64,000 bases of DNA, taken from assembly GCA_026387335.1 (NCBI GenBank), contig JAPLLX010000004.1:255045-319044 (forward strand), given 5' to 3'. Shown here piece by piece: positions 8,984 to 55,010 of the stretch. This DNA comes from Candidatus Omnitrophota bacterium. Lineage in GTDB: Bacteria; Omnitrophota; Gorgyraeia; Gygaellales; Profunditerraquicolaceae. Numbering within the stretch: the first letter of the stretch is position 1; each line of letters opens with the position of its first letter. Below the pieces are notes generated by a model. It did not search any database and was not told the DNA's origin. It was given only the letters and a program-made list of their open reading frames with translations. The translations under genes and the position numbers were made by a program.

Positions 8984-9054
8984 GGCGCGGAGCGGAATCG
9001 AACCGCTGAATAACTGTTTTGCAGACAGTCGCCTTTCCTCTTGGCTACCGCGCC
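8984..9054 (-). tRNA. tRNA-Cys (anticodon GCA)
   Basis: Acceptor GGCGCGG/CCGCGCC, anticodon stem-loop ACTGT-CTGCAAA-ACAGT, T-arm GCGG-TTCGATT-CCGC; 71 nt, no CCA. Confidence 0.8.
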
Positions 9055-9059
9055 AAAAA

Positions 9060-9602
9060 TTAAACCCTTAACTTTACCTCTTTTACTATTAAGTCGATCT
9101 CTGCCAAGCAGCCGACGCCCGTAGCACCGCAAGCCAGTTTTCCTTTTCGGGGCCCGATAAATTTATAACCTAATGATTTTAATTTTCCGATATTGGCCTG
9201 GGTAATCTTATTATTATACATATTTTCATTCATCGCCGGTGCGATTAACACGGGAGCTTTGGAGGCGCATATCACGCAAGTCAACAAATCATCGCAAATA
9301 CCGCAGGCGATTTTAGCGATAATATTGGCGGTTGCCGGAGCAATAAGAATTAGATCCGCCTTTGTAGCTAAAGAGATATGCTCAATATTCCAGGCCTGCG
9401 GGCCTGCAAATAATCCCCGGTAAACTTTATTCCCGGAAAGGCTCTCAAAGACAACCGGCCTTATAAGTTCTTCCGATTCCGGTGTCTGGATTACAGTAAC
9501 CGAGCAGCCTTCGTCTCTTAGCCGGCGGATTATATCGCAGGCTTTATAAATCGCGATACTGGCAGTTACGCCTAAAACAATATTTTTAACTTTTGCCGCC
9601 AT
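9060..9602 (-). CDS. coaC: phosphopantothenoylcysteine decarboxylase (flavoprotein CoaC domain only, no CoaB ligase domain)
   Basis: IVLGVTASIAIYKACDIIRRLRDEG...LILIAPATANIIAKIACGICDDLL...APAMNENMY matches the CoaBC N-terminal half; 180 aa. Confidence 0.85.
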   Translation of the reverse strand: MAAKVKNIVLGVTASIAIYKACDIIRRLRDEGCSVTVIQTPESEELIRPVVFESLSGNKVYRGLFAGPQAWNIEHISLATKADLILIAPATANIIAKIACGICDDLLTCVICASKAPVLIAPAMNENMYNNKITQANIGKLKSLGYKFIGPRKGKLACGATGVGCLAEIDLIVKEVKLRV

Positions 9603-9605
9603 AAA

Positions 9606-9815
9606 TTATTCTTTTCCTTTTATTTTTTTAGCTTCGATCTTGCCAGCGGAAATTTCATGCAAGGCAACAGTAGAAGGCTTAATATTCGCTTTGTCGTCTA
9701 CAAGTTTGGGCTGTCCTTCGGCTATTTCTAATGCCCTCTTGGCCGCTAAATTTACCAGCTTATAAATTGATTTTTCGCTTTTATCCAGCATCTTCTCTCT
9801 TTCCATGTATCCCAT
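9606..9815 (-). CDS. rpoZ: DNA-directed RNA polymerase subunit omega
   Basis: SIYKLVNLAAKRALEI core; 69 aa; gmk-rpoZ adjacency. Confidence 0.85.
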   Translation of the reverse strand: MGYMEREKMLDKSEKSIYKLVNLAAKRALEIAEGQPKLVDDKANIKPSTVALHEISAGKIEAKKIKGKE

Positions 9816-9818
9816 TCC

Positions 9819-10433
9819 TTATCCCCCCGCTATTGTCTTAAAACCAATTTCCTTTAATATAATCTCCTTTAGCCTCCCTGCGCTTTGCGACAAATTTTCA
9901 TTTTTCAAAACGTAATCGTATCTACGGGAATTTCTCAGCTCATCCCGGGCAAGTTTAATCCTCTTATTTACTTCCTCCTGTTTGGTCTTAGAACAACGGC
10001 CCTCTATCCTCTTGCGCAGCTCTTTTATAGACGGAGGAATAACGAATATCGTTACGGCGCTGTGCGGATATAGCTTCTTTAGTTTAAGCGCGCCTTTCAA
10101 GTCCAGGCAAAGAGCAAGATGCTTACCCTCTTTTAACCTCGCCTCCAGAAAGTCTTTTTTAGTGCCGTAATAATAACCTAAATACCGGGTCCATTCAAGG
10201 ATTTTTTTACCTTTATTCAGACGGTGGAAATCTTGCGGCTTAATAAAAAAATAGTCTTTGGAATGACGTTCCCCTGAACGCTTGGCCCGGGTAGTTACGG
10301 ATACGGATTTAGCCAGCTTGCCCTTTAACAACCGGTTAGCCAGGAGCCGTTTAAGCAGCGTGGTCTTCCCTGACCCTGAAGGCCCGGAAATAATAAAGAT
10401 TAAACCCCGTTTTTTATTCGCGTTGTCTTTCAC
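9819..10433 (-). CDS. gmk: guanylate kinase
   Basis: P-loop ISGPSGSGKTTL, SVSVTTRAKRSGE; 204 aa. Confidence 0.9.
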   Translation of the reverse strand: MKDNANKKRGLIFIISGPSGSGKTTLLKRLLANRLLKGKLAKSVSVTTRAKRSGERHSKDYFFIKPQDFHRLNKGKKILEWTRYLGYYYGTKKDFLEARLKEGKHLALCLDLKGALKLKKLYPHSAVTIFVIPPSIKELRKRIEGRCSKTKQEEVNKRIKLARDELRNSRRYDYVLKNENLSQSAGRLKEIILKEIGFKTIAGG

Positions 10434-11260
10434 TACTCTATATTCTGCGCCTGTTCGCGGATTTTCTCAATCAAACTTTTCATTTTCAGGACCTGCGCGG
10501 ATACGCGGATATCAAAGGTCTTGGCAGCCAAAGTATTCGCCTCCCTCTGCATCTCCTGCGCGATAAAATCCAGCTCTTTTCCGACTGAGCCGCCTAGCGA
10601 AAGCTTGTTTTTAAAATTCCGGATATGAAAAACCAGCCTATCTATCTCTTCAGTCGTATCTGTCTCTTTTATAAAATTAGCCCGCTCTTCATCGCAGGTA
10701 AGCGCTTTTAGTTTCTCCTTTAGGGCAGTTTTCAGCCGCAGCTTGATGCCTACCAGCGTTTCTTTGAGTTCATCCGCTTGTTTGCGTAAATAACCCTGCA
10801 GGGCCCTTCCTTCTTTTAGCCGCGTCTTGGCTAAATTATTCACCGCTTCCTCTACGGCTATTTTTAATTTCGGCCAGATGCTTTCCGGAGAAACCCGCTC
10901 TTCCTCCAGGGCCAACACGCCGGGCAAATGGATCAGGGTATTGATATTTAACCTCTCTTCGATTCTAAATTCTTTCTTGATGCCGTCTATCTTCGCCAAA
11001 TATTTCTTCAACAAGGCTTTGTTAATAAAAACATCCCCCGCTCTCCTGCTGCTTATATTCAGGCTGCAGGTAACCCTGCCCCTTTTAATCCTGGACTCAA
11101 CAGCCTTTTTAATCCTCTCTTCCAGCGATAATGATCCCTCGGGTAGATGCAATAATATCTCCAGGAACTTATGGTTGGTGCTTCTTAATTCCACCGATAC
11201 TTTACCCAACGCTGGAATTATTGTTTCGTAACTTCCAAAACCGGTCATACTTTGAATCAT
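10433..11260 (-). CDS. yicC: YicC family stress-induced protein
   Basis: N-terminal MTGFGSYE..., 275 aa, conserved yicC-gmk-rpoZ neighbourhood. Confidence 0.8.
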   Translation of the reverse strand: MIQSMTGFGSYETIIPALGKVSVELRSTNHKFLEILLHLPEGSLSLEERIKKAVESRIKRGRVTCSLNISSRRAGDVFINKALLKKYLAKIDGIKKEFRIEERLNINTLIHLPGVLALEEERVSPESIWPKLKIAVEEAVNNLAKTRLKEGRALQGYLRKQADELKETLVGIKLRLKTALKEKLKALTCDEERANFIKETDTTEEIDRLVFHIRNFKNKLSLGGSVGKELDFIAQEMQREANTLAAKTFDIRVSAQVLKMKSLIEKIREQAQNIE

Positions 11261-13529: not shown

Positions 13530-13721
13530 TTATTTGTCTTTAATCACACTTACGCGCACCATAGCTGGCTTTGCGCCGGGCATACCAAAAAGCCCCTTCT
13601 CTTCATCAGTAAGAATCTCTATTTTTACTTTATTGCGGGGAAGTTGCAATTGGTGAAGGGCCTTCTTAATCGCCTCTTCTACAGTATTACCTTCTATCTC
13701 TATGCTTTTTCTGCCGGTCAT
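13530..13721 (-). CDS. Jag/KhpB N-terminal domain protein (Jag_N only, lacks KH and R3H domains)
   Basis: IEIEGNTVEEAIKKALHQLQLPRNKVKIEIL...GLFGMPGAKPAMVRV matches the Jag N-domain; located after yidC as in the canonical locus; 63 aa. Confidence 0.6.
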   Translation of the reverse strand: MTGRKSIEIEGNTVEEAIKKALHQLQLPRNKVKIEILTDEEKGLFGMPGAKPAMVRVSVIKDK

Positions 13722-15241
13722 TTTGCCCTATTCATCCGGAGTTGGAATAACAACATAAGAATACTATTAATAAGCCAGTATAAAACTAGGCCAGAAGGCA
13801 TACGATAAAAGATAAAACCAAACATAACCGGCATAATAATAAGCATCATCTTTTGCTGTTCTGCGGAAGCTCCGCCGGATGCTGCTGAAGAAATCTTCTG
13901 CTGGAAGAACATACCGATAGCCATTATTATGGGTAAAATATTCAATTCATTACCTAATACCGGTAAAGATACCGGCAAGGTGAACAAGCGATCTGGTTCG
14001 GATAAATCCTTAATCCAGAGGAACTTGGCTCCTCTTAAAGCTACAGAGCGCATCAGAGCATTATACAAAGCAAAGAATATGGGCATTTGCAATATTAAGG
14101 GTAAGCATCCCCCAAAAGGATTAACCTTATGCAGTTTATAAAGTTCCATTATTTCTTTATTCATTTTCTGCGGGTTATCCTTATATTGCTTCCTAATCGC
14201 CTCTACTTTTGGCTGAATAGCCTGCATTTCCTTCATCGAGCGCATTTGTTTCAAGGAAAGCGGGTAAAGCAGTAAATAGACCAAGATACTTAAGATGATT
14301 ATGGCTAAACCCCAATTATGAAATAGGCGATATAAGAATTCCAGCGCCTGTAAAAGTATTTGCGAAATAAAGTCAAATGTTCCAAAATTGATAATACCGG
14401 CCCAATTTGGATTAACCTGGTTTATTGCTTTTAAGTCTTGGGGTCCCAGGTAAATATGAAATAAATGTCCAATCTGAGCTCCAGGTTGCAAAGTCAGAGC
14501 ATCTGTGCTTAACCCGACTTCAGATTCGACATTGCCAAGTTTTTTAATAAAACCGGAATAAGAATTACTTTCCGGCTCAACAATCAGACAAAAATAACGG
14601 TCTCTTAAACCCATTACTTTTAACTTATCTGATTTGTATTCTTTGGCTGCGGGCTTATGAAAAGATTTTTCTGGCGCGGAGAAATAGATATCTTGATAAC
14701 GGAGTTGCTCATTCTTGCTCGATAAATCCATAATTCCCAGAATAAGGGGGGAGTCGATGACAATGGGAGAGGAAGAAATATTTTGAATTTTAATCTGTAA
14801 GTCTAAGGCATAATTAGAGTTAGAGAATAAAAAATTCTTGGTGACCTTCTTTGCGCCATTCTGAGCAACAAAAGTAATTTCATTCTGGTTACTATTTACT
14901 TTTACATACTTTAGACTTCCATCATCAACCAAAAATCCCAATTTAAGAGGGAAGGGCTCATCGCGTTCCATTTTGAAAACTACTTTATTAATGGCGGCGC
15001 GCTGCTCATTAAAAAAGATCTCGGTATTCTTACGGCTTAGCTGAAGTAATGCCTGTTTCGGTTCTTCAACAGGCAGCCCCGGATTAACAATTTCTTGTTT
15101 AACCTGAACAGGTTCTTTTTGTTCCGTATAATTTGATGTAACTACTTTCTTATCAACTACTTGTGTCTTGGACACCAGGGCGGACCAACTCAACAAGACT
15201 ACCAAAGAAATTCCTATCGCCAGCAATAAACGTTTTTCCAT
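13718..15241 (-). CDS. yidC: membrane protein insertase YidC
   Basis: Periplasmic domain followed by the conserved TM core (PLSLKQMRSMKEMQAIQPKVEAIRKQYKDNPQKMNKEIMELYKLHKVNP); 507 aa. Confidence 0.9.
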   Translation of the reverse strand: MEKRLLLAIGISLVVLLSWSALVSKTQVVDKKVVTSNYTEQKEPVQVKQEIVNPGLPVEEPKQALLQLSRKNTEIFFNEQRAAINKVVFKMERDEPFPLKLGFLVDDGSLKYVKVNSNQNEITFVAQNGAKKVTKNFLFSNSNYALDLQIKIQNISSSPIVIDSPLILGIMDLSSKNEQLRYQDIYFSAPEKSFHKPAAKEYKSDKLKVMGLRDRYFCLIVEPESNSYSGFIKKLGNVESEVGLSTDALTLQPGAQIGHLFHIYLGPQDLKAINQVNPNWAGIINFGTFDFISQILLQALEFLYRLFHNWGLAIIILSILVYLLLYPLSLKQMRSMKEMQAIQPKVEAIRKQYKDNPQKMNKEIMELYKLHKVNPFGGCLPLILQMPIFFALYNALMRSVALRGAKFLWIKDLSEPDRLFTLPVSLPVLGNELNILPIIMAIGMFFQQKISSAASGGASAEQQKMMLIIMPVMFGFIFYRMPSGLVLYWLINSILMLLFQLRMNRAK

Positions 15242-15243
15242 AA

Positions 15244-15459
15244 TTACTCCAATGGATCATATCCGGATCTGCCGGAAAAAGGGTGACAGGCTAATAATCT
15301 CCTAGACCCCTTAAATGATCCTCTCCAAAATCCGTATTTTAAAATTGCCTGCCGGGTATATTCCGAACAGGAGGGACTGAAGCGGCAAGAGGCAGGTAAA
15401 TAGCCTCTTAAATACACCTGATAGGCCTTAATCAGGCCAAGTGACACCCGGGTTAACAT
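15244..15459 (-). CDS. yidD: membrane protein insertion efficiency factor YidD
   Basis: YQVYLRGYLPASCRFSPSCSEYTRQAILKYGFWRGSFKGSRRLLACHPF is a YidD signature; start overlaps the rpmH stop by 1 nt. Confidence 0.85.
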   Translation of the reverse strand: MLTRVSLGLIKAYQVYLRGYLPASCRFSPSCSEYTRQAILKYGFWRGSFKGSRRLLACHPFSGRSGYDPLE

Positions 15460-15596
15460 TAAATAGTAAGCCTTTTTCTGCCTTTTTGCCGGCGCCTGGC
15501 CAATAGCTTACGGCCGTTCTTAGTAGCCATCTTACTGCGAAACCCATGGCGTCTTTTCCCGACAATATTTGTGGGGGTCTTAAGATTTTTCTTCAT
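15459..15596 (-). CDS. rpmH: 50S ribosomal protein L34
   Basis: Own translation: [45 protein letters not shown] (45 aa), with a GGAGTAATA SD. Below the ORF-track size cutoff. Confidence 0.85.
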
Positions 15597-15883
15597 TATA
15601 TTACTCCTTAAACAAGCGCAAAACGCCAGAGGCAACGCTTGTTTACTCCGTGCTATGCACGGAGCTATTGTTATCTAGAATGGTTTTTAATTATAACATA
15701 AACGCTTTTGCCGTCAACCAGTAATTTGGCCGGCCAGGAGAATTGCGCACATTTATTCAGGAGTTATCCCCAATTCCGTCGGGAAAACCATCCCCGGGAT
15801 TAACGGAAACGCAACGCCCGGCTGTAATTTTTTTATGGCATTATTTTTTGCCCGTACTTTCTTTTGGGCGATCTTCTTTCTTA

Positions 15884-15961
15884 TTGACGCGCTGACAAAT
15901 TATTGTATAATGATTGACGTTTATCTTTTTTACTTGCAAGTTGTTTCGCTTCTGCTATAAT
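15884..15961 (+). promoter_or_regulatory. two tandem sigma70-type promoters upstream of dnaA (TTGACG-16-TATAAT at 15884-15911; TTGCAA-16-TATAAT at 15934-15961), in the putative oriC region
   Basis: Near-consensus -35/-10 hexamers with 16-nt spacers, seen directly, about 150 nt upstream of the dnaA ATG. Confidence 0.6.
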
Positions 15962-16108
15962 TATTGGACCGGAGAAGGAAACGGCCATAGAGAAGACCTG
16001 TTGGTAAGGGAATTTTAGGCAAAAATTTAGCCTAAGCTATATCCGCAAAGATGAATTTAGTTTCCACAGATTTATTCAAGGTGTTAATAAACTGTTAATA
16101 ACGAGAAA

Positions 16109-17449
16109 ATGGCTGAAATCACTCAAGCATGGAAACAGGTTCAGGACCAGATTCAAGAAGCCCTTGGCTTGACTATCTTTGAAACTTGGATTTTACCACT
16201 TAAGGCAATATCTCTGAACCAGGACTTATTGGTTTTAGAGGCGCCGGATACTTTCTTTAGGGACTGGGTGAAGAAAAATTACAGCTCAATCATTGAGAAC
16301 GCCTTTAGCGCGGCGGGGTTGGGAAAAATTAAAGTGGAGGTAGAAGCCAGTAGCGCGGTGAGCGCTGAACCCGACCGGGAACTACCGGCTAAAACCCTAA
16401 CCCAGGCTACCCGCGATAATCAGTACGGTTTAAACTTAAACAGCCGCTACACGTTTGACAATTTTGTTATCGGGCCTTCTAACCGGCATGCCCACGCCTA
16501 CTCTATAGCCGTGGCGGATTCTCTGGCCAAAACCTATAATCCCTTATTTATCTACGGCGGGGTGGGGTTAGGCAAAACTCATTTAATCCAGGCCATCTGC
16601 CATCAAATAAAAAATAAACTGGGAGACAGTTTAAAAATTGCCTACCTGCCATCGGAACAATTTACCAATGAGCTTATTAGCGCCATACAGCGCCACTCCA
16701 CAGCGGCTTTCCGGCAAAAATACCGGAACACCGACGTCCTAGTTATTGATGATGTGCATTTTTTTGGCGGGAAAGATTCTACCCAGGAAGAATTCTTTAA
16801 TACCTTTAACGTGTTATATGACGCGCACAAGCAAATAATTTTATCGTCGGATAGGCCGCCCAAGGAAATCGCGGATTTACAGGACCGGCTGGTTTCGCGT
16901 TTTGGCTGGGGGCTGACTACAGATATACAACCTCCGGACCTGGAAACGCGAGTGGCGATATTAAAGAAAAAAATTGAGCGCGAGCCGGTCTCTGTACCCG
17001 ACGACGTTATATTTTTTATTGCCCAGTTAATTAAAACTAATATCCGGGAGCTGGAAGGCGCTTTAGTCAGGACCATGGCTTATTCTTTAATGGAAGAAAA
17101 ACCCATAACTCTGAATTTAACCAAAGAGGTCCTGAAAGACCTCTTGAAAGAACCGAAGAAATTAATAACCGTGGATTTTATTCAACGCTGCGTTGCCGAA
17201 GACTTCGGTATTGCTTTGGCAGAACTCAAAGCCAAAAAAAGAAATAAGACAATAGTCTTACCTCGGCAAATAGCTATGTATTTAAGCAGGGAGTTAACGG
17301 ATCTATCCTTGCCTGAGATTGGCCAGTTTTTTGGCGGGAAAGACCACACAACAGTCTTGCATTCTTATAATAAAATAAAAGGGGAGTTGGGGGAGAACCC
17401 ATCCTTACAGGAAAAGGTAGAACGTATTATACAAATAGTCAAACATTAA
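16109..17449 (+). CDS. dnaA: chromosomal replication initiator DnaA
   Basis: AAA+ motifs [25 protein letters not shown]-terminal DNA-binding domain; 446 aa. Confidence 0.95.
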
Positions 17450-17593
17450 ACCCCCAGGTTATTCAAGGTTATTTTTTGTTTTAGTTATGTTGAGTTGGAG
17501 TAGGTTGGGGGGTTTTGAACAGGTTGGTAAGTATCTTATTACTACTGCTTTTTAAGTATTATATTAAATAATGAATAGTAAGGAGAAAGAAAA

Positions 17594-18685
17594 ATGAAAC
17601 TTAAGGTGGATAAAAGTATTTTATTGGGAGGGATACAAACCGTACAAAACGTAATCATAACTAAAGCTACCTTGCCCATATTATCCAATATTTTAATTGA
17701 GGCTCAAAGTAGTAGTTTAAGGCTTACAGCTACGGATTTAGATATTGGGATAAGCTGTGTAATACCTGTTGATGTCCAGGAACAGGGGGCGATCACTCTT
17801 CCAGCTAAAAGGTTTAGTGATATTATTAAAGAATTACCCGCGGATAGCGTTACTATAACCACTAAAAAAAATAACCAGGTTAATATTGAAACCGACTTAT
17901 GCCAGTTTAAAATTATGGGGTTAGCTAAAGAAGAGTTTCCTAAGTTGCCGGAATTTAAAGATAAAGAGGTTATCAAACTAGATCAGGCATTATTAAAAGG
18001 GGCCCTAACCCTGACTTCCTTTTCCGTCTCTATTGATGAATCGCGCTATATTTTAAACGGGATACTTTTTAAGGTCAATAAAAACAATCTGACCCTGGTG
18101 GCTACCGACGGTAAGAGGTTAGCGATTATGGAAAAGAAGTTAAACTCTAACCCGGAAAGAGATATTAGTATAATTGTGCCGGTGAAAACCATCCATGAAT
18201 TAAACCGGAATTTAAAAGAAAGCGGAGAGGTGTCTTTGGTGTTGGGAAGTAATCAGGTGTTGTTTGACTTAGGTAGCGTGATAGTGATTTCGCGCTTAAT
18301 CGAGGGCGAATTTCCGGACTACAAACAAGTGATTCCTGTAGCATCTGAAAATAAGGTGCGCCTGAATAAAGAGCAGTTTTTATTAGCGGTCAAAAGAGCG
18401 GCCTTATTATCTACGCCGGATTATCAAGCGGTCAAGTTTGAAGTTTTTAAGAATAAATTAGTGGTTTCTAAGTCTACTCCCGATGTAGGAGAATCGCGGG
18501 AAGAATTAGCGGTTGTCTATCAAGGGAAAGAGTTGGCCATAGGTTTTAATCCCTCTTATTTAATAGATGTTTTAAAAAACTTAAACGTTGAGGAGATAGA
18601 CCTGGAATTGACTGACGCGGAAAAACCCGGGGTTATCCGGATTAACGGATATGTTTATATTGTGTTGCCTATGCGCCTGAGTTAA
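17594..18685 (+). CDS. dnaN: DNA polymerase III beta sliding clamp
   Basis: 363 aa, three-domain clamp, dnaA-dnaN synteny. Confidence 0.93.
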   Translation: MKLKVDKSILLGGIQTVQNVIITKATLPILSNILIEAQSSSLRLTATDLDIGISCVIPVDVQEQGAITLPAKRFSDIIKELPADSVTITTKKNNQVNIETDLCQFKIMGLAKEEFPKLPEFKDKEVIKLDQALLKGALTLTSFSVSIDESRYILNGILFKVNKNNLTLVATDGKRLAIMEKKLNSNPERDISIIVPVKTIHELNRNLKESGEVSLVLGSNQVLFDLGSVIVISRLIEGEFPDYKQVIPVASENKVRLNKEQFLLAVKRAALLSTPDYQAVKFEVFKNKLVVSKSTPDVGESREELAVVYQGKELAIGFNPSYLIDVLKNLNVEEIDLELTDAEKPGVIRINGYVYIVLPMRLS

Positions 18686-18697
18686 CGCGCTCATTTA

Positions 18698-21432
<2,735 letters not shown>

Positions 21433-44507: not shown

Positions 44508-45614
44508 ATGATTAATAAAACACGCCTTATCAGTCTTACCCGTAAGCTTATCCGGATAAATTCTGAAAATCCTCTCCGTGATGAACGTAGAATAGCTGAG
44601 TTTGTGCAGGCCTATCTTAAAAGGCTAGGGTTTAAGACCAGGATTTATGAATTTAAGGCCAGGCGCTCTAACGTGGTGGCGTATTTAGAGAGCCCCGGAA
44701 GCAAGCATGCGTTGCTTATTACGCCGCACCTGGATACTGTCCCCGCCGGAAAGAATTGGAAATTCAATCCTTTTACGGGCAAGATAGCCAACGGCAGGAT
44801 TTACGGCTTAGGCGCGACCGATTGTAAAGGTAATCTGGCTTGCGCTATGGAAGCGATAAACAGCCTAGTTCAAGACGGAAGAGTTTTGGGTTATAACCTT
44901 ATATTTGCGGCTACTGCCGATGAAGAGAGCGGCTCAGGCTTAGGGTTGATCCCGCTTTTGGATAAGAAGATCTTAAAGCCCGACGCCGCGTTAGTCTTGG
45001 ACTGCGAAGATTTTGAAATCATTGTTGCGCAGAAAGGTCTTATACATCTTAAAGTTAAGATAGAGGGCAAAAGAGCTCACGGTGCCTATCCTCATCTGGG
45101 TACTAATGCCATTGACCTGGCCCTGGAAGTTATAAGACAGATAAAAAACTACAAAAAAAACCCTACGGTCAATGTTGGCACAATCAGGGGAGGAGATAAG
45201 GTGAATGTTGTGGCTGACTGGTGCGAATTTGAACTGGATTTCAGGTTCTTGCCGGGAATGCGGCCGAAAGATATAATAAGCCGGCTTAAAAGTATTTTAA
45301 AGAAATACACAAAAAAATACAAAATAGAAATTGCCGGGATCCAGCAGCCTTATCAAATATCCGAAAAGCACCCTTTAGTCGGTTATTTAAAAAAGGCGAT
45401 GGCCAGCCAAAAAATTACGCCGGCCATAGAAGGCTCCGCGGGAGCGACGGTAATCACCTTTTTTCAGCATAAAAACATTCCGGCAATCGCCTCGGGATTC
45501 GGCTCAAGCGGGCAGGCGCATACCCGTAATGAATATGTAAAGATTGATAATCTTTACCGGGGCGCGCAAGTTTTAGAAAAATTTCTTACGGACTATTTAT
45601 CAAAGGAGCGATGA
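44508..45614 (+). CDS. M20-family metallopeptidase (ArgE/DapE-type deacylase)
   Basis: HLDTVP, GATDCKGNLA, ATADEESGS metal-binding motifs; 368 aa. Confidence 0.8.
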   Translation: MINKTRLISLTRKLIRINSENPLRDERRIAEFVQAYLKRLGFKTRIYEFKARRSNVVAYLESPGSKHALLITPHLDTVPAGKNWKFNPFTGKIANGRIYGLGATDCKGNLACAMEAINSLVQDGRVLGYNLIFAATADEESGSGLGLIPLLDKKILKPDAALVLDCEDFEIIVAQKGLIHLKVKIEGKRAHGAYPHLGTNAIDLALEVIRQIKNYKKNPTVNVGTIRGGDKVNVVADWCEFELDFRFLPGMRPKDIISRLKSILKKYTKKYKIEIAGIQQPYQISEKHPLVGYLKKAMASQKITPAIEGSAGATVITFFQHKNIPAIASGFGSSGQAHTRNEYVKIDNLYRGAQVLEKFLTDYLSKER

Positions 45615-48953: not shown

Positions 48954-49065
48954 ATTTCTTGACAAGTACAGTATATTGTGATAAAAAAACATTATAAATA
49001 CAATATTTAGCGTAATCTTTTAGGAGGTATTAAACTTAAATTGGAAAAATAGGCGTAAGTAGGAG

Positions 49066-49095
49066 GGCTCTTTAGCAGATTAAGAGCCTTTTTTT
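49066..49095 (+). terminator. intrinsic terminator-like hairpin 8 nt upstream of the Ddl-like operon start codon (possible attenuator)
   Basis: GGCTCTT-tagcagatt-AAGAGCC followed by TTTTTTT; a sigma70-like promoter TTGACA-16-ATAAAA lies at 48959-48986. Confidence 0.5.
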
Positions 49096-49103
49096 ATAAT
49101 AAT

Positions 49104-50090
49104 ATGAAAATAGTCGGATTAACCTACGATTTAAGGACAGATTACCAGTTTAAAGAAGGCGATCCTCTGGATGCCAACGCCGAATTTGACCATCCTTCAA
49201 CTATCGACGTTATTGCTGACGCCATTGCGGCCAACGGTTTTAAAGTAGAACGCATCGGGAATGCCGGAAATCTTCTGGATAAGATCTCTTCTTTAAAAGT
49301 AGATATAGTCTTTAATATTTCCGAAGGTCTTACCGGAAGGAACCGGGAATCACAGGTCCCTATTCTGCTGGAAATGGCCGGTATCCCATTTGTGGGAGCA
49401 GACGCCTTGACCCTGGGCCTGACTTTAGATAAGGTGATGGCCAAGAAGATTTTTATCTCCGAGAAGATTCCCACCCCGAAATTTTTTGAAGTCAGTTCGG
49501 TCGGCGAGCTGACCAATCTTAACCATCATAAGTTCCCGTTAATAGTCAAGCCGCGCTTTGAGGGTTCTTCCAAGGGTTTAAGCGAGAGTTCCCGGGTAGA
49601 AACCAGAGAAGAGTTGGCTAAGCAGGTTGAGTATGTTATAAGCGCCTATAAACAACCGGCATTAGTGGAAGAATTTATCTCCGGCCAGGAGTTCACCGTA
49701 GCTTTAGTCGGAAACGATCCGGTTGAAGTCCTTCCGATTGTCCAGATCAAGATTGACGGGAGGTTAAAATTAAACGACAAGTTCTATACTTTTGCCCGGA
49801 TCACTTCGGATAGATTAGAATATATCTGTCCCGCGAAGATCTCCAAGGAGTTAAAGAAAACAATCGACAAGTTGGCCCTAAAGACTTATAAGTCGGTAGA
49901 GTGCCGGGATTTCGGCCGGGTGGATTTCCGCGTGGATAATGAAGGCAATCCTTATGTCTTAGAGATTAACCCTCTGCCCTCACTTTCTACGGAAGATGTA
50001 TTTATGCTGTTGGCGAAAAATATCGGCATAACTTATGAGCAGATGATCGGGAAAATCTTAAACAGCGCGATCAAGAGGCATAATCTTTAA
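49104..50090 (+). CDS. D-alanine--D-alanine ligase family ATP-grasp enzyme (short, atypical), paralogue 1
   Basis: VDIVFNISEGLTGRNRESQVPILLEMAGIPFVGADALTLGLTLDKVMAKKIF aligns with the Ddl N-terminal/central domain; ATP-grasp C-domain ...EINPLPSL; 328 aa. Confidence 0.7.
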   Translation: MKIVGLTYDLRTDYQFKEGDPLDANAEFDHPSTIDVIADAIAANGFKVERIGNAGNLLDKISSLKVDIVFNISEGLTGRNRESQVPILLEMAGIPFVGADALTLGLTLDKVMAKKIFISEKIPTPKFFEVSSVGELTNLNHHKFPLIVKPRFEGSSKGLSESSRVETREELAKQVEYVISAYKQPALVEEFISGQEFTVALVGNDPVEVLPIVQIKIDGRLKLNDKFYTFARITSDRLEYICPAKISKELKKTIDKLALKTYKSVECRDFGRVDFRVDNEGNPYVLEINPLPSLSTEDVFMLLAKNIGITYEQMIGKILNSAIKRHNL

Positions 50091-50094
50091 TAAA

Positions 50095-51096
50095 ATGAAA
50101 ATAGCTTTGACTTATAACCTGAAGCAAAAAGACGAAAGCAAACCGGCGGATTATTTTTCGGAGTGCGACAGCGCGGATACGATCAACGCGATTACCAACG
50201 CTATCCGAAAAAAAGGCCATGATGTTGAAGCTATAGACGTGGAATACCCAAAGCTGCTCTCTTATTTCCGAAAAAATTCCGTGGATATGGTTTTTAATAT
50301 TGCCGAGGGCAAATCCGGGAAGTTCCGCGAATCGGAAGTGCCGGCAATCCTGGATTATCTGAATATCCCCTATACAGGCTCGGATACCTTCTCCCTAGCT
50401 TTAGCTTTAAATAAAGCCATTACCAAAAAAATCCTCAAAGCGGAAAATATCCCCACGCCGAATTTTCAACTTTTCATAAAAGGAAACGAAGAGCTGGATC
50501 CAGCGTTAAGGTTCCCATTAATAGTCAAGCCGAATTGCGAGGGTTCCGCCAAAGGTATCTCTAAGGCCAATGTGGTGAGTAATTCTAAGGACCTGTATAA
50601 GAGGGTGAGAGAGACGTTAGAAGTTTATAATCAGGAGGCCTTAGCCGAAGAATTTATTGAAGGCAAAGAGCTTACTGTCGGGATATTAGAAAACGGCAAG
50701 ACAAAAGCCCTGCCGATTTTAGAGATAGATTTCTCTACCTGTAAGAATAGCGGAGAATATTTTTATTCCTGGAAGATGAAGGAGTATCAGGGGGATAAAG
50801 ATCTAGGGTTAGTCCCGGCCTTTCATTGCCCGGCGCGGCTGGATAAAGATATTGAGGAGCGGGTTAAAGAAGTGGCGCTGAGGACTCACCGCGCGATTGG
50901 CTGCGCGGACATCTCGCGCACCGATATCCGTTTGGATAAATTTAATGTTCCGTATGTGTTAGAGATAAACCCCTTGCCGGGATTAGACCCCAAAGAATCC
51001 AACTTTCCGATTATGGCTTACGCCGCCGGGATGAAATATGAAGATCTTATTGAGGCAATAATCTTGAGCGCCTCAGAAAGGAAAGGGCTAAATTGA
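50095..51096 (+). CDS. D-alanine--D-alanine ligase family ATP-grasp enzyme, paralogue 2
   Basis: Same architecture as the upstream gene (VDMVFNIAEGKSGKFRESEVPAILDYLNIPYTGSD ... EINPLPGL); 333 aa. Confidence 0.7.
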   Translation: MKIALTYNLKQKDESKPADYFSECDSADTINAITNAIRKKGHDVEAIDVEYPKLLSYFRKNSVDMVFNIAEGKSGKFRESEVPAILDYLNIPYTGSDTFSLALALNKAITKKILKAENIPTPNFQLFIKGNEELDPALRFPLIVKPNCEGSAKGISKANVVSNSKDLYKRVRETLEVYNQEALAEEFIEGKELTVGILENGKTKALPILEIDFSTCKNSGEYFYSWKMKEYQGDKDLGLVPAFHCPARLDKDIEERVKEVALRTHRAIGCADISRTDIRLDKFNVPYVLEINPLPGLDPKESNFPIMAYAAGMKYEDLIEAIILSASERKGLN

Positions 51097-52280
51097 GTAA
51101 CGTACAGGCAATTGAAAACCAGAAATTGCAGCAGGAGAGTTCTCCTGTAGTACGCAGTACCAAGAAACCGCGCGATTATCAGCAGATAGCAATTTATAAA
51201 GATGTCAATCCTCTGGATTGGGAAGATTGGCATTGGCAGATAAAAAACAGGATTTGTTCTAAAGATATTTTAGCGCAGATTATAAATTTAACTCCCGATG
51301 AGGAGAAAGGTATTGATAAGGCCAAAGGAAGATTATCCATGGCCATAACTCCTTATTGGGGAACGTTGCTTGATCCGGAAGACGCCGATTGCCCTCTAAG
51401 GCGCCAGGCTGTCCCGGTGGTCCAGGAATTAATGATTTCTCCCCATGAAATGACTGATCCTTGCGCGGAAGACCGGGATTCTCCGGCCCCGCACCTGGTG
51501 CATCGTTACCCGGACAGGGTTCTATTATTGGCTACAGACCACTGCGCAATGTACTGCCGCCACTGCACGCGCCGGCGCCTGGTCGGAGACCATGGAGAAA
51601 AAGATTCTAATTCTCCGGATAGGTTTGATGCCGCTATAGAATATATAAAAGCTAACCGTAAAATAAGGGACGTGTTAATATCCGGAGGCGACCCGTTAAC
51701 CCTGGAAGACGAGGAATTGGATGATCTGCTCGGAAAAATCCGCTCTATATCCCACATAGAATTCTTACGGCTGGGTACGCGCATACCCGTCACGCTTCCG
51801 CAGCGCATTACGGAAAACTTGGTGAATATAATGAAAAAATATTCGCCGCTTTGGGTAAGCATTCATTTTAACCATCCGAAAGAGATAACCAAACGCGCTA
51901 AGATCGCCTGCGATATGTTAGCGGAAGCCGGGATTCCTTTGGGCAGCCAGACTGTGCTTTTAAAAGGGATTAACGACCGGCCGTATATAATGAAAAAACT
52001 GGTCCACGAATTACTGCAGATTAGAGTCAGGCCGTATTATATTTATCAATGCGATCCTGTGCGGGGGACCCAGCATTTCCGGACCCCGGTTGCCGTCGGG
52101 ATCAATATTATGGAAAAATTACGCGGGCATACTTCCGGCTACGCTGTCCCGACTTATGTCATTGACGGTCCGGGAGGCGGCGGGAAAATACCCGTCGGGC
52201 CGAATTATATTCTTTCCCAGGCCAAGGGAAAGTACGTCCTGCGTAACTACAAAGGCAAGATCTATACCTACCTGGAATAA
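51093..52280 (+). CDS. kamA: lysine 2,3-aminomutase family radical SAM enzyme (KamA/EpmB-like)
   Basis: CAMYCRHCTRRR radical-SAM cluster motif in KamA context, PLP-binding region; 395 aa; start overlaps the upstream stop. Confidence 0.8.
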   Translation: MSNVQAIENQKLQQESSPVVRSTKKPRDYQQIAIYKDVNPLDWEDWHWQIKNRICSKDILAQIINLTPDEEKGIDKAKGRLSMAITPYWGTLLDPEDADCPLRRQAVPVVQELMISPHEMTDPCAEDRDSPAPHLVHRYPDRVLLLATDHCAMYCRHCTRRRLVGDHGEKDSNSPDRFDAAIEYIKANRKIRDVLISGGDPLTLEDEELDDLLGKIRSISHIEFLRLGTRIPVTLPQRITENLVNIMKKYSPLWVSIHFNHPKEITKRAKIACDMLAEAGIPLGSQTVLLKGINDRPYIMKKLVHELLQIRVRPYYIYQCDPVRGTQHFRTPVAVGINIMEKLRGHTSGYAVPTYVIDGPGGGGKIPVGPNYILSQAKGKYVLRNYKGKIYTYLE

Positions 52281-52334: not shown

Positions 52335-54290
52335 ATGGATGTCAGGAATAAACGAAATTTTATCCTTTTAGGGCATGCTCAGTCCGGCAAGACCACACTC
52401 GCGGAGAGCATGCTTTATTTCTCTAAGGCCACCACCCGTAAAGGCAAAGTTGAAGATGGGACGACTGTCAGTGACTACAGCTTTGACGAGATAGAAAAGA
52501 AAAATTCCATCAATTTAAGCCTGCTCTTTTGTGAATATCAGGGTAACCAGATCCAGATTGTGGATACACCCGGTTACGCGGATTTCTTCGGTGAGGTTGT
52601 CGCCGGGGCCCGCGCGGTAGATAGCGCTCTTATTGTGGTGGACGCCACAGCCGGTGTCCAGGTAGGGACTGAGCGCGCCTGGGATATCGCCCAGGAAAAT
52701 AACCTTCCCTGCATGATTTTTATCAATAAGATGGATAAAGAAGGCGCGGATGTGAATAAGGTTTTAGCGGACCTAAAATCCAGCCTTTCCAAAAATTGCG
52801 TAATCATAGAATCTTTGGAAGACCCGCTTTTAATGGAAGCAATCGCTGAGAGCGACGACAGCCTTTTGGAAAAATACCTGGCGGTTTTAAGGCTCTCCCT
52901 GGAAGAGATAAAAAGCGGTCTGGCTCAGGCAGTTATGCAACGTAAGCTCTTCCCCGTTGTGGTTGGTTCGGCGCTTACCGATAAAGGGATTAAAGATTTG
53001 CTGGACGATGTTTTACAATATCTGCCCAGTCCTCTGGATAGGGCTCCCGTAATAGCGGATAATCCGTTAAAAACGGGTGAGAAAAAAGAAGTTATTTTAA
53101 AAGAAGAGGCGTCTTTCTCAGCGTTTGTCTTTAAGAATATTTCAGACCCTTTTGTCGGCCAGCTTACGTTGTTGCGCGTTTTTTCCGGCATGCTTGCGGC
53201 AAATTCGGGTTTTTACAACGTAAGCCGCAGTCTTAAAGAAAGAATAGGACCGATATATTTTCTGCAGGGCAAGGGTGAACGCCAAGTGGACAGCGCGCAT
53301 TGCGGGGATATTGTCGCTATCGCTAAATTAAAGAATACGGGAGTCTCGGATTCGCTGGCGCAGGAAAAAGAGCAGTTTTTATTTGAGCCGATTGTTTTCC
53401 CCGAGCCGGCGATATCAGCGTCGGTCAAGCCCAAATCCCGCGAGGACGAAGAAAAAATTTCTGACGCCTTGCATAAACTGGCGGCGGAAGACCATACGTT
53501 CGGGGTCAGGCACGACCCGCAGACCAAAGAGTTGGTTGTTTCCGGGCTGGGCGACTTGCACTTAGCGGTTATGGTCGGCAGGATGAAAAAAAGATTTAAT
53601 GTCGCGGTGGATTTAGGCACGCCGAAAGTATCCTATAAAGAGACGATCTCTAAAAGCGCTAAGGTGCAGGGTAAATTCAAGCGCCAATCCGGCGGTCGCG
53701 GCCAATACGGAGATTGCTGGTTAGAGGTAAGCCCTTTAGGACGGGGCAAGGGCCTGGAGTTCGTAGATAAGATAGTCGGAGGGGCAATACCGCGCAATTT
53801 TATTCCTTCGGTGGAAAAAGGCGTGCGCCAGGCTTCCTTAGAAGGCGCGGTCGCGGGTTACCCCATTGAAGATATCCGGGTGACTTTAGTTGACGGTTCA
53901 TACCATGAGGTGGACTCTTCGGATATGGCTTTTCAAATCGCCGGGGCGATGGCTTTACGCAAGGCGGTTATGGAAGCCGGCCCGGTATTATTAGAGCCGA
54001 TAATGGATATTGAGATATATATTCCGGAAGAATGCCTGGGAACGATTTCCGGAGATATTAATTCCCGCCGGGGCAGGATCATGGGTATGGAGATAAAAGG
54101 CAAACAACAGGTAGTCAAAGTGCAGGCGCCGCTAGCGGAGATGTTTAAGTACGCCAATGACCTGCGTTCAATAACCGCGGGCAAAGGCTCTTACACAATG
54201 CGTTTTTCGCATTACGAAGAAGTGCCGCATAAGTTTGCCGCATCAATAATCACTCAATATCAAGCCACCAAAAAACAGGAAGAACAATAA
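52335..54290 (+). CDS. elongation factor G paralogue with Tyr in place of the switch II catalytic His
   Basis: G1 GHAQSGKTTL, G3 DTPGYADF (canonical DxPGHxDF), G4 NKMD; full five-domain EF-G length of 651 aa. Confidence 0.75.
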   Translation: MDVRNKRNFILLGHAQSGKTTLAESMLYFSKATTRKGKVEDGTTVSDYSFDEIEKKNSINLSLLFCEYQGNQIQIVDTPGYADFFGEVVAGARAVDSALIVVDATAGVQVGTERAWDIAQENNLPCMIFINKMDKEGADVNKVLADLKSSLSKNCVIIESLEDPLLMEAIAESDDSLLEKYLAVLRLSLEEIKSGLAQAVMQRKLFPVVVGSALTDKGIKDLLDDVLQYLPSPLDRAPVIADNPLKTGEKKEVILKEEASFSAFVFKNISDPFVGQLTLLRVFSGMLAANSGFYNVSRSLKERIGPIYFLQGKGERQVDSAHCGDIVAIAKLKNTGVSDSLAQEKEQFLFEPIVFPEPAISASVKPKSREDEEKISDALHKLAAEDHTFGVRHDPQTKELVVSGLGDLHLAVMVGRMKKRFNVAVDLGTPKVSYKETISKSAKVQGKFKRQSGGRGQYGDCWLEVSPLGRGKGLEFVDKIVGGAIPRNFIPSVEKGVRQASLEGAVAGYPIEDIRVTLVDGSYHEVDSSDMAFQIAGAMALRKAVMEAGPVLLEPIMDIEIYIPEECLGTISGDINSRRGRIMGMEIKGKQQVVKVQAPLAEMFKYANDLRSITAGKGSYTMRFSHYEEVPHKFAASIITQYQATKKQEEQ

Positions 54291-54308
54291 GATAAGGAGT
54301 AGTGTATA

Positions 54309-55010
54309 GTGAAGATTAGTGTAATCGGACTGCCCGGCTTAAACCCCGGAAAACATAATATTAAGGATTCTCGTCTTGATCAAGTGGATAGCATAACTAA
54401 AGCCAAGAAGAGGACCTACATTCAAGTTGAAGTCGTTTCCGAAAACGGGGCAATAGACGCGGACGCGATTTTAGTCGTCAAAAATTCATCCTCGGACGTA
54501 ATCTTAAAAGACCTGGAATTTGTGGAGACGCGGCTGGCGCGGGCCACCGAGGAAGCGGAAAAGAATTTATTTAACAAACTAAAGGGCATACTGGAAAAAG
54601 AGGAATTTATCTCCCGCGCGGCTTTAAACCCCGACGAGAAAAAAGAATTGGTTAAATACGGTTTACTTAGCGCTAAACCGGTTATTGTCGCTAGCGAGCA
54701 AGACCTGGAAGACCAAAACAGTTTATTACTCAGGGCCTTAAAAGAGGGAGGCTTTCTGAGCTTTTTTACAACCGGCGAAAAAGAGACCCGGGCCTGGCTT
54801 ATAAGATGTGGAGATACTGCCTGGGTCGCTTCGGGCGCGATACATTCGGATATACAGCAGGGTTTTATCCGGGCCGAAATTATCGCTTTCCAGGATTTTA
54901 TGGAATGCGGTGGTGAATCCAAGGCTAAGCAGGCGGGTAAAATGCGCCTTGAGCCCAAAGAATACATCATGCAGGACTGTGATCTGGCAAACTTTCGGTT
55001 TAATAAATAG
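54309..55010 (+). CDS. YchF/Obg-like ATPase paralogue with degenerate P-loop and truncated G domain but intact C-terminal TGS domain
   Basis: N-terminal ISVIGLPGLNPGKHN versus canonical GIVGLPNVGKST; DSRLDQVDSI aligns with YchF DPRLDQLAEI; C-terminal TGEKETRAWLIRCGDTAWVASGAIHSDIQQGFIRAEI...GKMRLEPKEYIMQDCDLANFRFN matches the YchF TGS domain; 233 aa versus about 360 for YchF. Confidence 0.65.
   Translation: MKISVIGLPGLNPGKHNIKDSRLDQVDSITKAKKRTYIQVEVVSENGAIDADAILVVKNSSSDVILKDLEFVETRLARATEEAEKNLFNKLKGILEKEEFISRAALNPDEKKELVKYGLLSAKPVIVASEQDLEDQNSLLLRALKEGGFLSFFTTGEKETRAWLIRCGDTAWVASGAIHSDIQQGFIRAEIIAFQDFMECGGESKAKQAGKMRLEPKEYIMQDCDLANFRFNK

Follow-up and report, generated by a model that had tools for sequence, protein, structure and literature searches.

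Three co-directional open reading frames (ORFs) on the + strand of a 64,000-nucleotide stretch of a Candidatus Omnitrophota genome (contig JAPLLX010000004.1; the whole stretch is called the window below) encode two paralogous ATP-grasp ligases and a lysine 2,3-aminomutase: Lig1 (49104-50090, 328 amino acids, aa), Lig2 (50095-51096, 333 aa) and KamA (51093-52280, 395 aa, with a TTG start). These coordinates and lengths match exactly those of an operon at 49104-52280 in a preliminary description of this DNA, as does the overlap of the Lig2 stop with the KamA start; that description had read the trio as a candidate pathway for ligating beta-lysine, an interpretation that the present analysis supports. 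From a direct reading of the junctions, the TAA stop of Lig1 lies 4 nt 5' of the Lig2 ATG, and Lig2 and KamA overlap by the 4 nt TTGA, which hold both the TTG of KamA and the TGA of Lig2; the overlap, with a Shine-Dalgarno-like GGAAAGG about 8 nt upstream, indicates that these two genes are translationally coupled. A scan of the window found no + strand terminator-like sites inside the three genes or 3' of KamA, and downstream genes may therefore be co-transcribed.

The trio is strictly syntenic. A scan of species-representative genomes yielded 80 loci (L001-L080; mostly labelled Omnitrophota, some Planctomycetales or Margulisiibacteriota, and referred to here as the Omnitrophota loci) whose Lig1 orthologues are 77-90% identical to the Lig1 of the window. 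The preliminary description had made its reading depend on synteny in other genomes, and this is what is found: Lig2 follows Lig1 at all 72 loci with enough sequence, and a full-length KamA is present at 66 of the 67 that could be assessed. The exception is L054, a long-read-style assembly (1.19-Mb contig) in which both the Lig2 and the KamA matches (8990-10970) are partial, probably because of a frameshift error and not gene decay. Median identities to the window are 81.7% for Lig1, 80.4% for Lig2 and 81.0% for KamA, making the trio the best-conserved block of its neighbourhood; the corresponding values for the neighbours are 78.1% (EF-G2), 75.7% (PurH), 60.2% (MnmE), 59.2% (a YchF-like protein) and 55.3% (FolC). 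The flanks vary from locus to locus, with UPF0280, HAD or other genes upstream and EF-G2 downstream in 37 of 68.

The enzymes and the leader of the operon

KamA is a lysine-type aminomutase. Described earlier as a KamA-type radical S-adenosylmethionine (SAM) aminomutase, it does carry CAMYCRHCTRRR, and it matches the solved lysine 2,3-aminomutase of Clostridium subterminale (2A5H) with E = 1.5e-141 over residues 32-395. It scores 341 on the KamA family model TIGR00238 (cut-off 199) and 520.5 on the AblA equivalog model TIGR03820 (cut-off 525.4), missing the latter by 5 bits since the alignment reaches no further than position 360 of the 417 in the model. The EpmB model TIGR03821 is failed (242.4 against a cut-off of 369.3), and scores on the glutamate, arginine and EpmB aminomutase models all lie far under their cut-offs. 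The three cysteines of the CxxxCxxC cluster motif (C125, C129 and C132), the pyridoxal phosphate (PLP) lysine K337, and R134, D293 and D330 (2A5H numbering) are conserved in KamA and invariant among 130 further sequences, comprising 68 Omnitrophota orthologues and 62 ligase-linked KamAs from elsewhere. In the 2A5H structure R134 binds the lysine carboxylate, and D293 and D330 the epsilon-ammonium group; since KamA keeps all three, as do without exception the 68 Omnitrophota orthologues and 57 proteins from related ligase clusters, its substrate should be free L-lysine. In glutamate 2,3-aminomutase both aspartates are replaced, and a glutamate or arginine 2,3-aminomutase identity for KamA is ruled out by the conservation of D293 and D330 and by the lower model scores. 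The Clostridium enzyme has a Zn-binding domain made up of C268 and a C-terminal Cys triad; this Zn site is absent from KamA, in which R takes the place of C268 and the chain stops at the equivalent of 2A5H residue 367, with the C-terminal Zn domain missing. The window thus encodes a short-form, KamA/AblA-like radical SAM and PLP enzyme.

Lig1 and Lig2 are catalytically intact Ddl-fold ligases, and they are not Ddl. The two are paralogues (38% identity, E = 4e-71) that match the Pfam domain Dala_Dala_lig_C with E-values of 2.5e-39 and 1.4e-36, respectively, and share 28-29% identity with E. coli DdlB. An AlphaFold2 model of Lig1 (predicted local distance difference test score, pLDDT, 87) was compared with solved structures by Foldseek; the top 50 PDB matches are all Ddl/Van ligases with template modelling (TM) scores of 0.70-0.78, the best Ddl structures aligning at a TM score of about 0.78 with 22-25% identity. 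Residue conservation was checked in 80 Lig1 and 71 Lig2 orthologues. In both ligases K97, K144, E148-G149-S150, E180, E187, R255, D257, E270 and N272 (DdlB numbering) are kept, and with the full set of ATP, Mg and catalytic residues known from DdlB in place both are predicted to be active. We find no basis for calling them unusually short, as had been done, given that E. coli DdlB has 306 aa and that the chains in solved Ddl structures span about 306-386 aa.

The preliminary description had also left open that the D-Ala specificity determinants might be intact; they are replaced, and both proteins score below the NCBIfam Ddl cut-offs, with 163.7 and 168.4 on TIGR01205 (Ddl; cut-off 245.65) and 183.6 and 203.6 on the broad Ddl subfamily model NF002378 (cut-off 243). 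H63 is E in both ligases, Y216 is I in Lig1 and E or D in Lig2, and L282 is V or N, each invariant or nearly so among the orthologues. As noted before, RESQV and RESEV stand in place of the GEDG loop: the GRGGEDG of Ddl has become G-x-x-R-E-S, reading GRNRESQV in Lig1 and GKFRESEV in Lig2. At the N terminus YDL...AEFD, with about 11 inserted residues, takes the place of the GGxSxE motif; of the E15-S150-Y216 triad of Ddl the ligases keep S150, while Y216 is replaced. At the acceptor site the paralogues differ from each other: G276 is S in Lig1 and retained in Lig2, and S281, which in DdlB holds the carboxylate of D-Ala2, is invariably D in Lig1 and retained in Lig2.

Upstream of Lig1 lies a sigma-70-type promoter, close to consensus, on the + strand (48959-48987), identified by sequence reading and conservation, with a -35 element TTGACA (48959-48964), a 17-nt spacer and TAAAAA (48982-48987) within an extended -10 element TGaTAAAAA (48979-48987). 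Of 81 Omnitrophota upstream regions, 80 carry the extended -10, and 73 of these 80 also have TTGACA; relatives conserve the 150-nt spacer that precedes Lig1. A generic consensus promoter scan gave no enrichment over shuffles and did not list the TTGACA/TAAAAA pair, so the call rests on conservation; the -35/extended -10 pair kept across related upstream regions bears out the earlier proposal that the operon has its own promoter. An inverted repeat, ATATTGT (48973-48979) and ACAATAT (49000-49006), flanks the -10 and the likely transcription start. Allowing up to one mismatch, it recurs in 49 of 80 related loci, where the two halves usually stand 19-20 nt apart, and could be a repressor operator or a chance occurrence in AT-rich DNA.

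The transcript would begin with a leader of about 105 nt (48991-49095, + strand), which has an intrinsic terminator at its 3' end and, further upstream, GGAGG (49023-49027) and TTGGAAAAA (49042-49050). Leader length is 98-129 nt in 72 of 73 parsed loci, GGAGG and TTGGAAAAA included. An nhmmer search with a leader profile gives a single copy per sequence, in the window and at all 80 Omnitrophota loci alike, and the copy lies upstream of Lig1 in all 73 loci that could be parsed; no further copies of the kind that would mark a regulon are present in these 81 sequences, and none is found in the distant loci L081-L091. Searches against Rfam returned no match (best E-values 1.8-2.8, far under the gathering scores), and a known riboswitch or cis-regulatory RNA was rejected on these chance-level matches; the promoter-leader-terminator unit is a candidate new regulatory RNA.

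The terminator hairpin (49061-49095, + strand; -14.8 kcal/mol by RNAfold) pairs GGCTCTT (49066-49072) with AAGAGCC (49082-49088) around a 9-nt loop and is followed by a T run (49089-49095). The T run ends 8 nt before the first ATG, just where a terminator-like hairpin had been reported, and the hairpin is conserved in relatives: in 72 leaders the stem has a median length of 9 bp and the hairpin a median energy of -14.7 kcal/mol, the core is GGGCUC/GAGCCC, and inner stem positions vary between loci while pairing is retained. The distance from terminator to ATG ranges from 0 to 186 nt (median 29.5), and the Lig1 of the window has no Shine-Dalgarno sequence. Several GGA motifs lie in the leader (49023-49052 in the window), GGAGG and TTGGA among them; most relatives carry TTGGA in up to three copies. 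A mini-ORF of 3-7 codons from a conserved TTG (MEK*, MEKIG*) is found in about 80% of leaders, its stop mostly 2-14 nt before the stem; with a distance of 13-16 nt from Shine-Dalgarno sequence to start, and about 20% of leaders having no stop before the terminator, a leader peptide is possible but not convincing. The GGA motifs and the mini-ORF could represent a protein-binding site or a translated leader.

The wider ligase family, its fusions and related clusters

Fusions and recurring clusters tie the ligase family to the short KamA in several lineages. Among 1.84 billion cluster representatives (clusters at 50% identity), 1,155 proteins match Lig1 at E <= 1e-30, many of them tandem two-module ligases of 600-730 aa. 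P0186 is an ATP-grasp-KamA fusion, and P0219, P0319, P0335 and P0336 are KamA-ATP-grasp fusions; one fusion was named at source 'KamA family protein/D-alanine--D-alanine ligase'. Relatives also include ligase-GNAT and tandem-ligase-GNAT fusions. A metagenome scan seeded with a tandem-type ligase yielded another 80 loci (L092-L171) with the gene order KamA-LigA-LigB-GNAT; KamA is present in at least 65 of them and GNAT in 50, two ligase modules are found in nearly all, and at several of the loci that lack KamA little sequence, or none, is available 5' of the ligase. The co-occurrence that the preliminary description had proposed to look for is thus found elsewhere, both as KamA/ATP-grasp fusions in either order and as KamA-ligase-ligase(-GNAT) clusters.

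The ligase-linked KamAs are all of the same short AblA-like type. The GNATs of the related clusters match no AblB model at E <= 1e-5 and give weak RimI matches only, and no GNAT is present in the operon of the window or in the 80 Omnitrophota loci. The only other recurrent neighbour, at 14 loci, is a sigma-54 enhancer-binding protein; such proteins with receiver or FHA domains stand beside KamA-ligase-ligase-GNAT clusters (e.g. L169, 8706-10232; L089, 3987-5279), which suggests signal-dependent expression of this version of the system. Transporter, hydrolase, efp and carrier protein genes show no recurrence around the 80 related clusters, in a search whose ORF filter was disturbed by long antisense ORFs on high-GC contigs.

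A simple neighbour-joining tree with bootstrap and one true Ddl outgroup, which shows clades within the family and not its placement among all Ddl, groups Lig1 with the single ligase of L087 and proteins from Elusimicrobiota (bootstrap 95). Separate clades are formed by Lig2, by the two ligase modules found in the related clusters and by both halves of a type linked to Peptidase_S58. At L087, which has Omnitrophota-like flanks, the module consists of one Lig1-type ligase and KamA. The Lig1 clade is present in many Elusimicrobiota assemblies, and some of its database entries are named D-alanine--D-alanine ligase. Its members have E at position 63 (79 of 79), D at 281 (77 of 79) and V or I at 216, and nine of them score 163-193 on Ddl models, below the cut-offs; the common signature and these scores indicate that the Elusimicrobiota-type proteins are Lig1's kind of enzyme and not canonical Ddl. 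At L081, the sole KamA-bearing one of five such loci examined, KamA lies 4 kb downstream of the Lig1-type gene.

In the S58-linked branch a tandem ATP-grasp protein of about 705-724 aa has a Peptidase_S58 gene immediately 3' (L083, 8001-11432; L090, 8001-11329). These tandem ligases occur in Anaeromyxobacter diazotrophicus, which is cultured, and in another lineage, with no KamA nearby. Peptidase_S58 is the DmpA/BapA family, which includes beta-peptidyl aminopeptidases, and the pair accordingly resembles a synthetase with a matching hydrolase for some peptide. A DUF1015 gene lies near the ligase or KamA at two very distant loci, L081 (14456-15559; Elusimicrobiota) and L090 (4722-6068; Anaeromyxobacter), which may be coincidence. 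At L091 a canonical EpmA (990-1886, 39% identity to E. coli EpmA) is encoded about 4 kb upstream of a KamA-ligase-ligase/GNAT cluster, from which hsp20 and lon separate it; the KamA of this locus might serve both the EpmA system and the ligase cluster.

A candidate route from lysine to an amide, and its alternatives

The known fates of beta-lysine are, to our knowledge, few: acetylation to an osmolyte, transfer to EF-P by EpmA, fermentation, and antibiotic assembly of the nonribosomal peptide synthetase type. We propose, with about even confidence, that the three genes convert lysine to beta-lysine and then ligate it, at the expense of ATP, into a small amide or peptide. KamA, judging by its conserved lysine-binding and cofactor residues, would convert free L-lysine to beta-lysine; Lig1 and Lig2 would phosphorylate a carboxylate and couple the resulting acyl phosphate to an amine, and in this way may build beta-lysine, which we infer to be a ligase substrate, into a product such as a di- or tripeptide. 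Lig1 would be the core partner, a Lig1-type ligase and KamA being the whole module in one related lineage. The invariant D in place of S281 suggests that the acceptor of Lig1 is an amine lacking an adjacent carboxylate, for instance an epsilon-amino group or a diamine; Lig2, with S281 kept, would add or accept a normal alpha-amino acid. As no exporter or tailoring gene is linked to the operon, the product would most likely be cytoplasmic, a solute or a building block. Transcription would start from the operon's own conserved promoter and would have to read through the conserved leader terminator, so that expression is probably set by attenuation. In general terms this would be amide ligation that is independent of the ribosome and draws its substrate from an aminomutase; the association of the genes is robust and occurs widely, but the product chemistry is a guess. 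A literature search, incomplete in its coverage of subscription journals, found no paper linking KamA with ATP-grasp ligases.

The nearest precedents each share a part of this arrangement. AblA/AblB makes the osmolyte N-epsilon-acetyl-beta-lysine in methanogens and some bacteria; like the system described here it starts with a lysine 2,3-aminomutase, KamA scores 520.5 on the AblA model, and a GNAT is found in the related clusters. The Omnitrophota operon differs in having no GNAT, in its two ATP-grasp ligases, which have no AblAB counterpart, and in a KamA without the C-terminal Zn domain. In EpmB/EpmA, too, a KamA-family aminomutase has an ATP-dependent partner for the formation of a beta-lysyl amide, a pairing to which the two-gene module of L087 comes close; however, the partner here is an ATP-grasp enzyme working through an acyl phosphate rather than a paralogue of lysyl-tRNA synthetase working through an acyl adenylate, KamA fails the EpmB model, and no efp linkage was found in the window or in L001-L171.

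Carnosine synthase uses a beta-amino acid and, like the ATP-grasp L-amino-acid ligases, forms small peptides in an ATP-dependent, ATP-grasp-type reaction. Ngg and AsnO, which make N-acetylglutaminylglutamine amide (NAGGN), also form a small peptide with ATP and independently of the ribosome, and Ngg combines N-acetylation with peptide-bond formation to give an N-acetylated dipeptide osmolyte (PMC8070244), a combination of acetylation and ligation as in the ligase-GNAT fusions among the relatives. No specific relationship of Lig1 and Lig2 to Ngg, the L-amino-acid ligases or carnosine synthase is detectable, however, their closest solved relatives being Ddl, and the supply of substrate by a linked aminomutase is new here. 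Cyanophycin synthetase and cyanophycinase offer a parallel in ATP-grasp non-ribosomal amide formation, and some relatives are tandem ligases beside a peptidase; in contrast to that system, the ligases have no Mur-ligase-like module, the peptidase of the relatives is of family S58 and not S51, and the operon contains no hydrolase. With Ddl/VanA (EC 6.3.2.4) the ligases share the three-domain ATP-grasp fold, the ATP, Mg and catalytic residues, the omega-loop region and a size in the range of DdlB, but at 22-29% identity, with changed substrate determinants and in a KamA context instead of one of mur/fts genes.

Several observations weigh against the proposed route. At four of the five loci examined for the Lig1 clade of Elusimicrobiota type there is no KamA within 7-10 kb; three of these are named Elusimicrobiota and one (L173) is of unknown taxon, and at all four the Lig1-type gene stands alone among housekeeping genes, often of translation or replication. 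The function of a Lig1-type enzyme thus needs no adjacent KamA, and these enzymes may have a more general housekeeping role, or KamA may lie elsewhere in the same genomes. The ligases are also about as conserved as EF-G2, which is odd for a solute or secondary-metabolite pathway, and the Omnitrophota operon holds no GNAT, transporter or hydrolase that would hint at a product. As for the attenuator proposed in the preliminary description, the conserved promoter and leader terminator make attenuation plausible, but no antiterminator structure was found: RNAalifold on 44 leaders detects no conserved helix besides the terminator base, and no antiterminator pairing is seen by eye.

The first alternative, which we consider unlikely, is that Lig1, perhaps with Lig2, puts beta-lysine on a protein lysine, such as that at the loop tip of EF-P, as an ATP-grasp analogue of EpmA. 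The minimal module of KamA and one Lig1-type ligase at L087 parallels EpmB plus EpmA, an acceptor amine without an adjacent carboxylate suits the replacement of S281 by D in Lig1, and the very high sequence conservation of the trio fits as well. Translation genes are frequent neighbours: EF-G2 and the YchF-like gene in the window, rpsU at L087, infB/nusA/rimP at L081 and L174, and infC/rpmI/thrS at L173; where genomes are small, proximity of this kind says little. For about half of the lysine-type EF-Ps no modification is known (PMC11388002; PMC13602936), which also counts in favour of this reading. Against this, similarity searches found no efp in the window or in L001-L171, and KamA is AblA-like and not EpmB-like (242 against a cut-off of 369). 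The two ligases, the GNAT and sigma-54 activators of the relatives and the leader terminator here suit metabolism better, and a canonical EpmA stands near one related cluster, that of L091; a similarity search with E. coli EpmA found no other in the window or in L001-L171. In its most specific form, that the Lig1-type enzymes of Omnitrophota and Elusimicrobiota are an unrecognised class of beta-lysyl transferases passing KamA-made beta-lysine to a protein lysine, with the EF-P loop tip as the obvious candidate, we regard the idea as quite unlikely; if true, Lig1-type enzymes would be non-homologous replacements of EpmA acting via an acyl phosphate rather than an acyl adenylate and, with EF-P as the target, would fill part of the gap in the modification of lysine-type EF-Ps.

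We similarly doubt, and consider unlikely, that the ligases act repeatedly to build an oligo- or polyamide from beta-lysine, with or without a second amino acid, as a cyanophycin-like reserve of nitrogen or charge. Tandem two-module ligases do exist among the relatives, those of Anaeromyxobacter and one other lineage have a Peptidase_S58 gene next to them in a synthetase/hydrolase-like arrangement, and sigma-54 activators lie beside 14 related clusters. However, the S58-linked relatives have no KamA nearby and fall in separate clades, the Omnitrophota operon has no hydrolase, and the ligase sequences give no sign of processivity or of a primer requirement.

That the two activities have separate jobs, the beta-lysine from KamA being used elsewhere while Lig1 and Lig2 ligate unrelated substrates, appears very unlikely. 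It would agree with the four further loci, at least three of them in Elusimicrobiota, where a Lig1-type gene has no KamA nearby. The translational coupling of Lig2 and KamA argues against it, as do the complete synteny over 80 species despite changing flanks, the fusion of KamA and ligase in both orders, and the recurrence of the cluster in at least 65 of 80 distant loci. Finally, that Lig1 or Lig2 is the housekeeping D-Ala-D-Ala ligase of peptidoglycan synthesis is hardly credible: the fold and the best PDB matches are those of Ddl, some Lig1-clade entries carry the Ddl name, Lig1-type genes are single and housekeeping-like in Elusimicrobiota, and no other canonical ddl is present in the 64-kb window or in any fetched locus (8-10 kb flanks), but the D-Ala1 and D-Ala2 determinants are replaced (including S281 by D in Lig1), all tested members score 163-204 against cut-offs of 243 and 246, the mur/fts context is absent, the genes are co-translated with KamA, and close relatives are fused to KamA or GNAT.

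A coupling of KamA to Ddl-fold ATP-grasp ligases, as in the proposed route to a small beta-lysyl amide, would add a new route for beta-lysine and would define a large ligase family now labelled 'D-alanine--D-alanine ligase' or 'ATP-grasp domain-containing protein'. In Omnitrophota, of which hardly any members have been cultured, the family seems to belong to the core gene set. The pathway could yield a new compatible solute or a natural beta-peptide, or it could modify a protein; it would be small and self-contained, with three genes and with lysine and ATP as its inputs.

Neighbouring genes and the origin region

Immediately downstream of KamA, positions 52335-55010 encode an EF-G paralogue of 651 aa, which passes the broad EF-G subfamily model and lies slightly below the EF-G equivalog cut-off, and then a 233-aa protein with only the C-terminal domain of YchF. 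EF-G2 was considered as a part of the system and excluded, being downstream in just 37 of 68 loci. An ArgE/DapE-family M20 deacylase is encoded 3.5 kb upstream of the operon (44508-45614) and keeps its place at 44 of the Omnitrophota loci. The DapE of lysine biosynthesis belongs to this family, as do beta-Ala-Xaa dipeptidases; because the entire block is syntenic, no specific link between the deacylase and the operon is demonstrable.

The window also contains the chromosomal replication origin region (13718-21432), in which yidC (13718-15241, - strand) is separated by an 867-nt gap from dnaA (16109-17449, + strand), followed on the + strand by dnaN (17594-18685) and gyrB (18982-21432); the sign of the GC skew switches close to 16 kb. 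The operon, on the leading strand, is about 33 kb away from this region.

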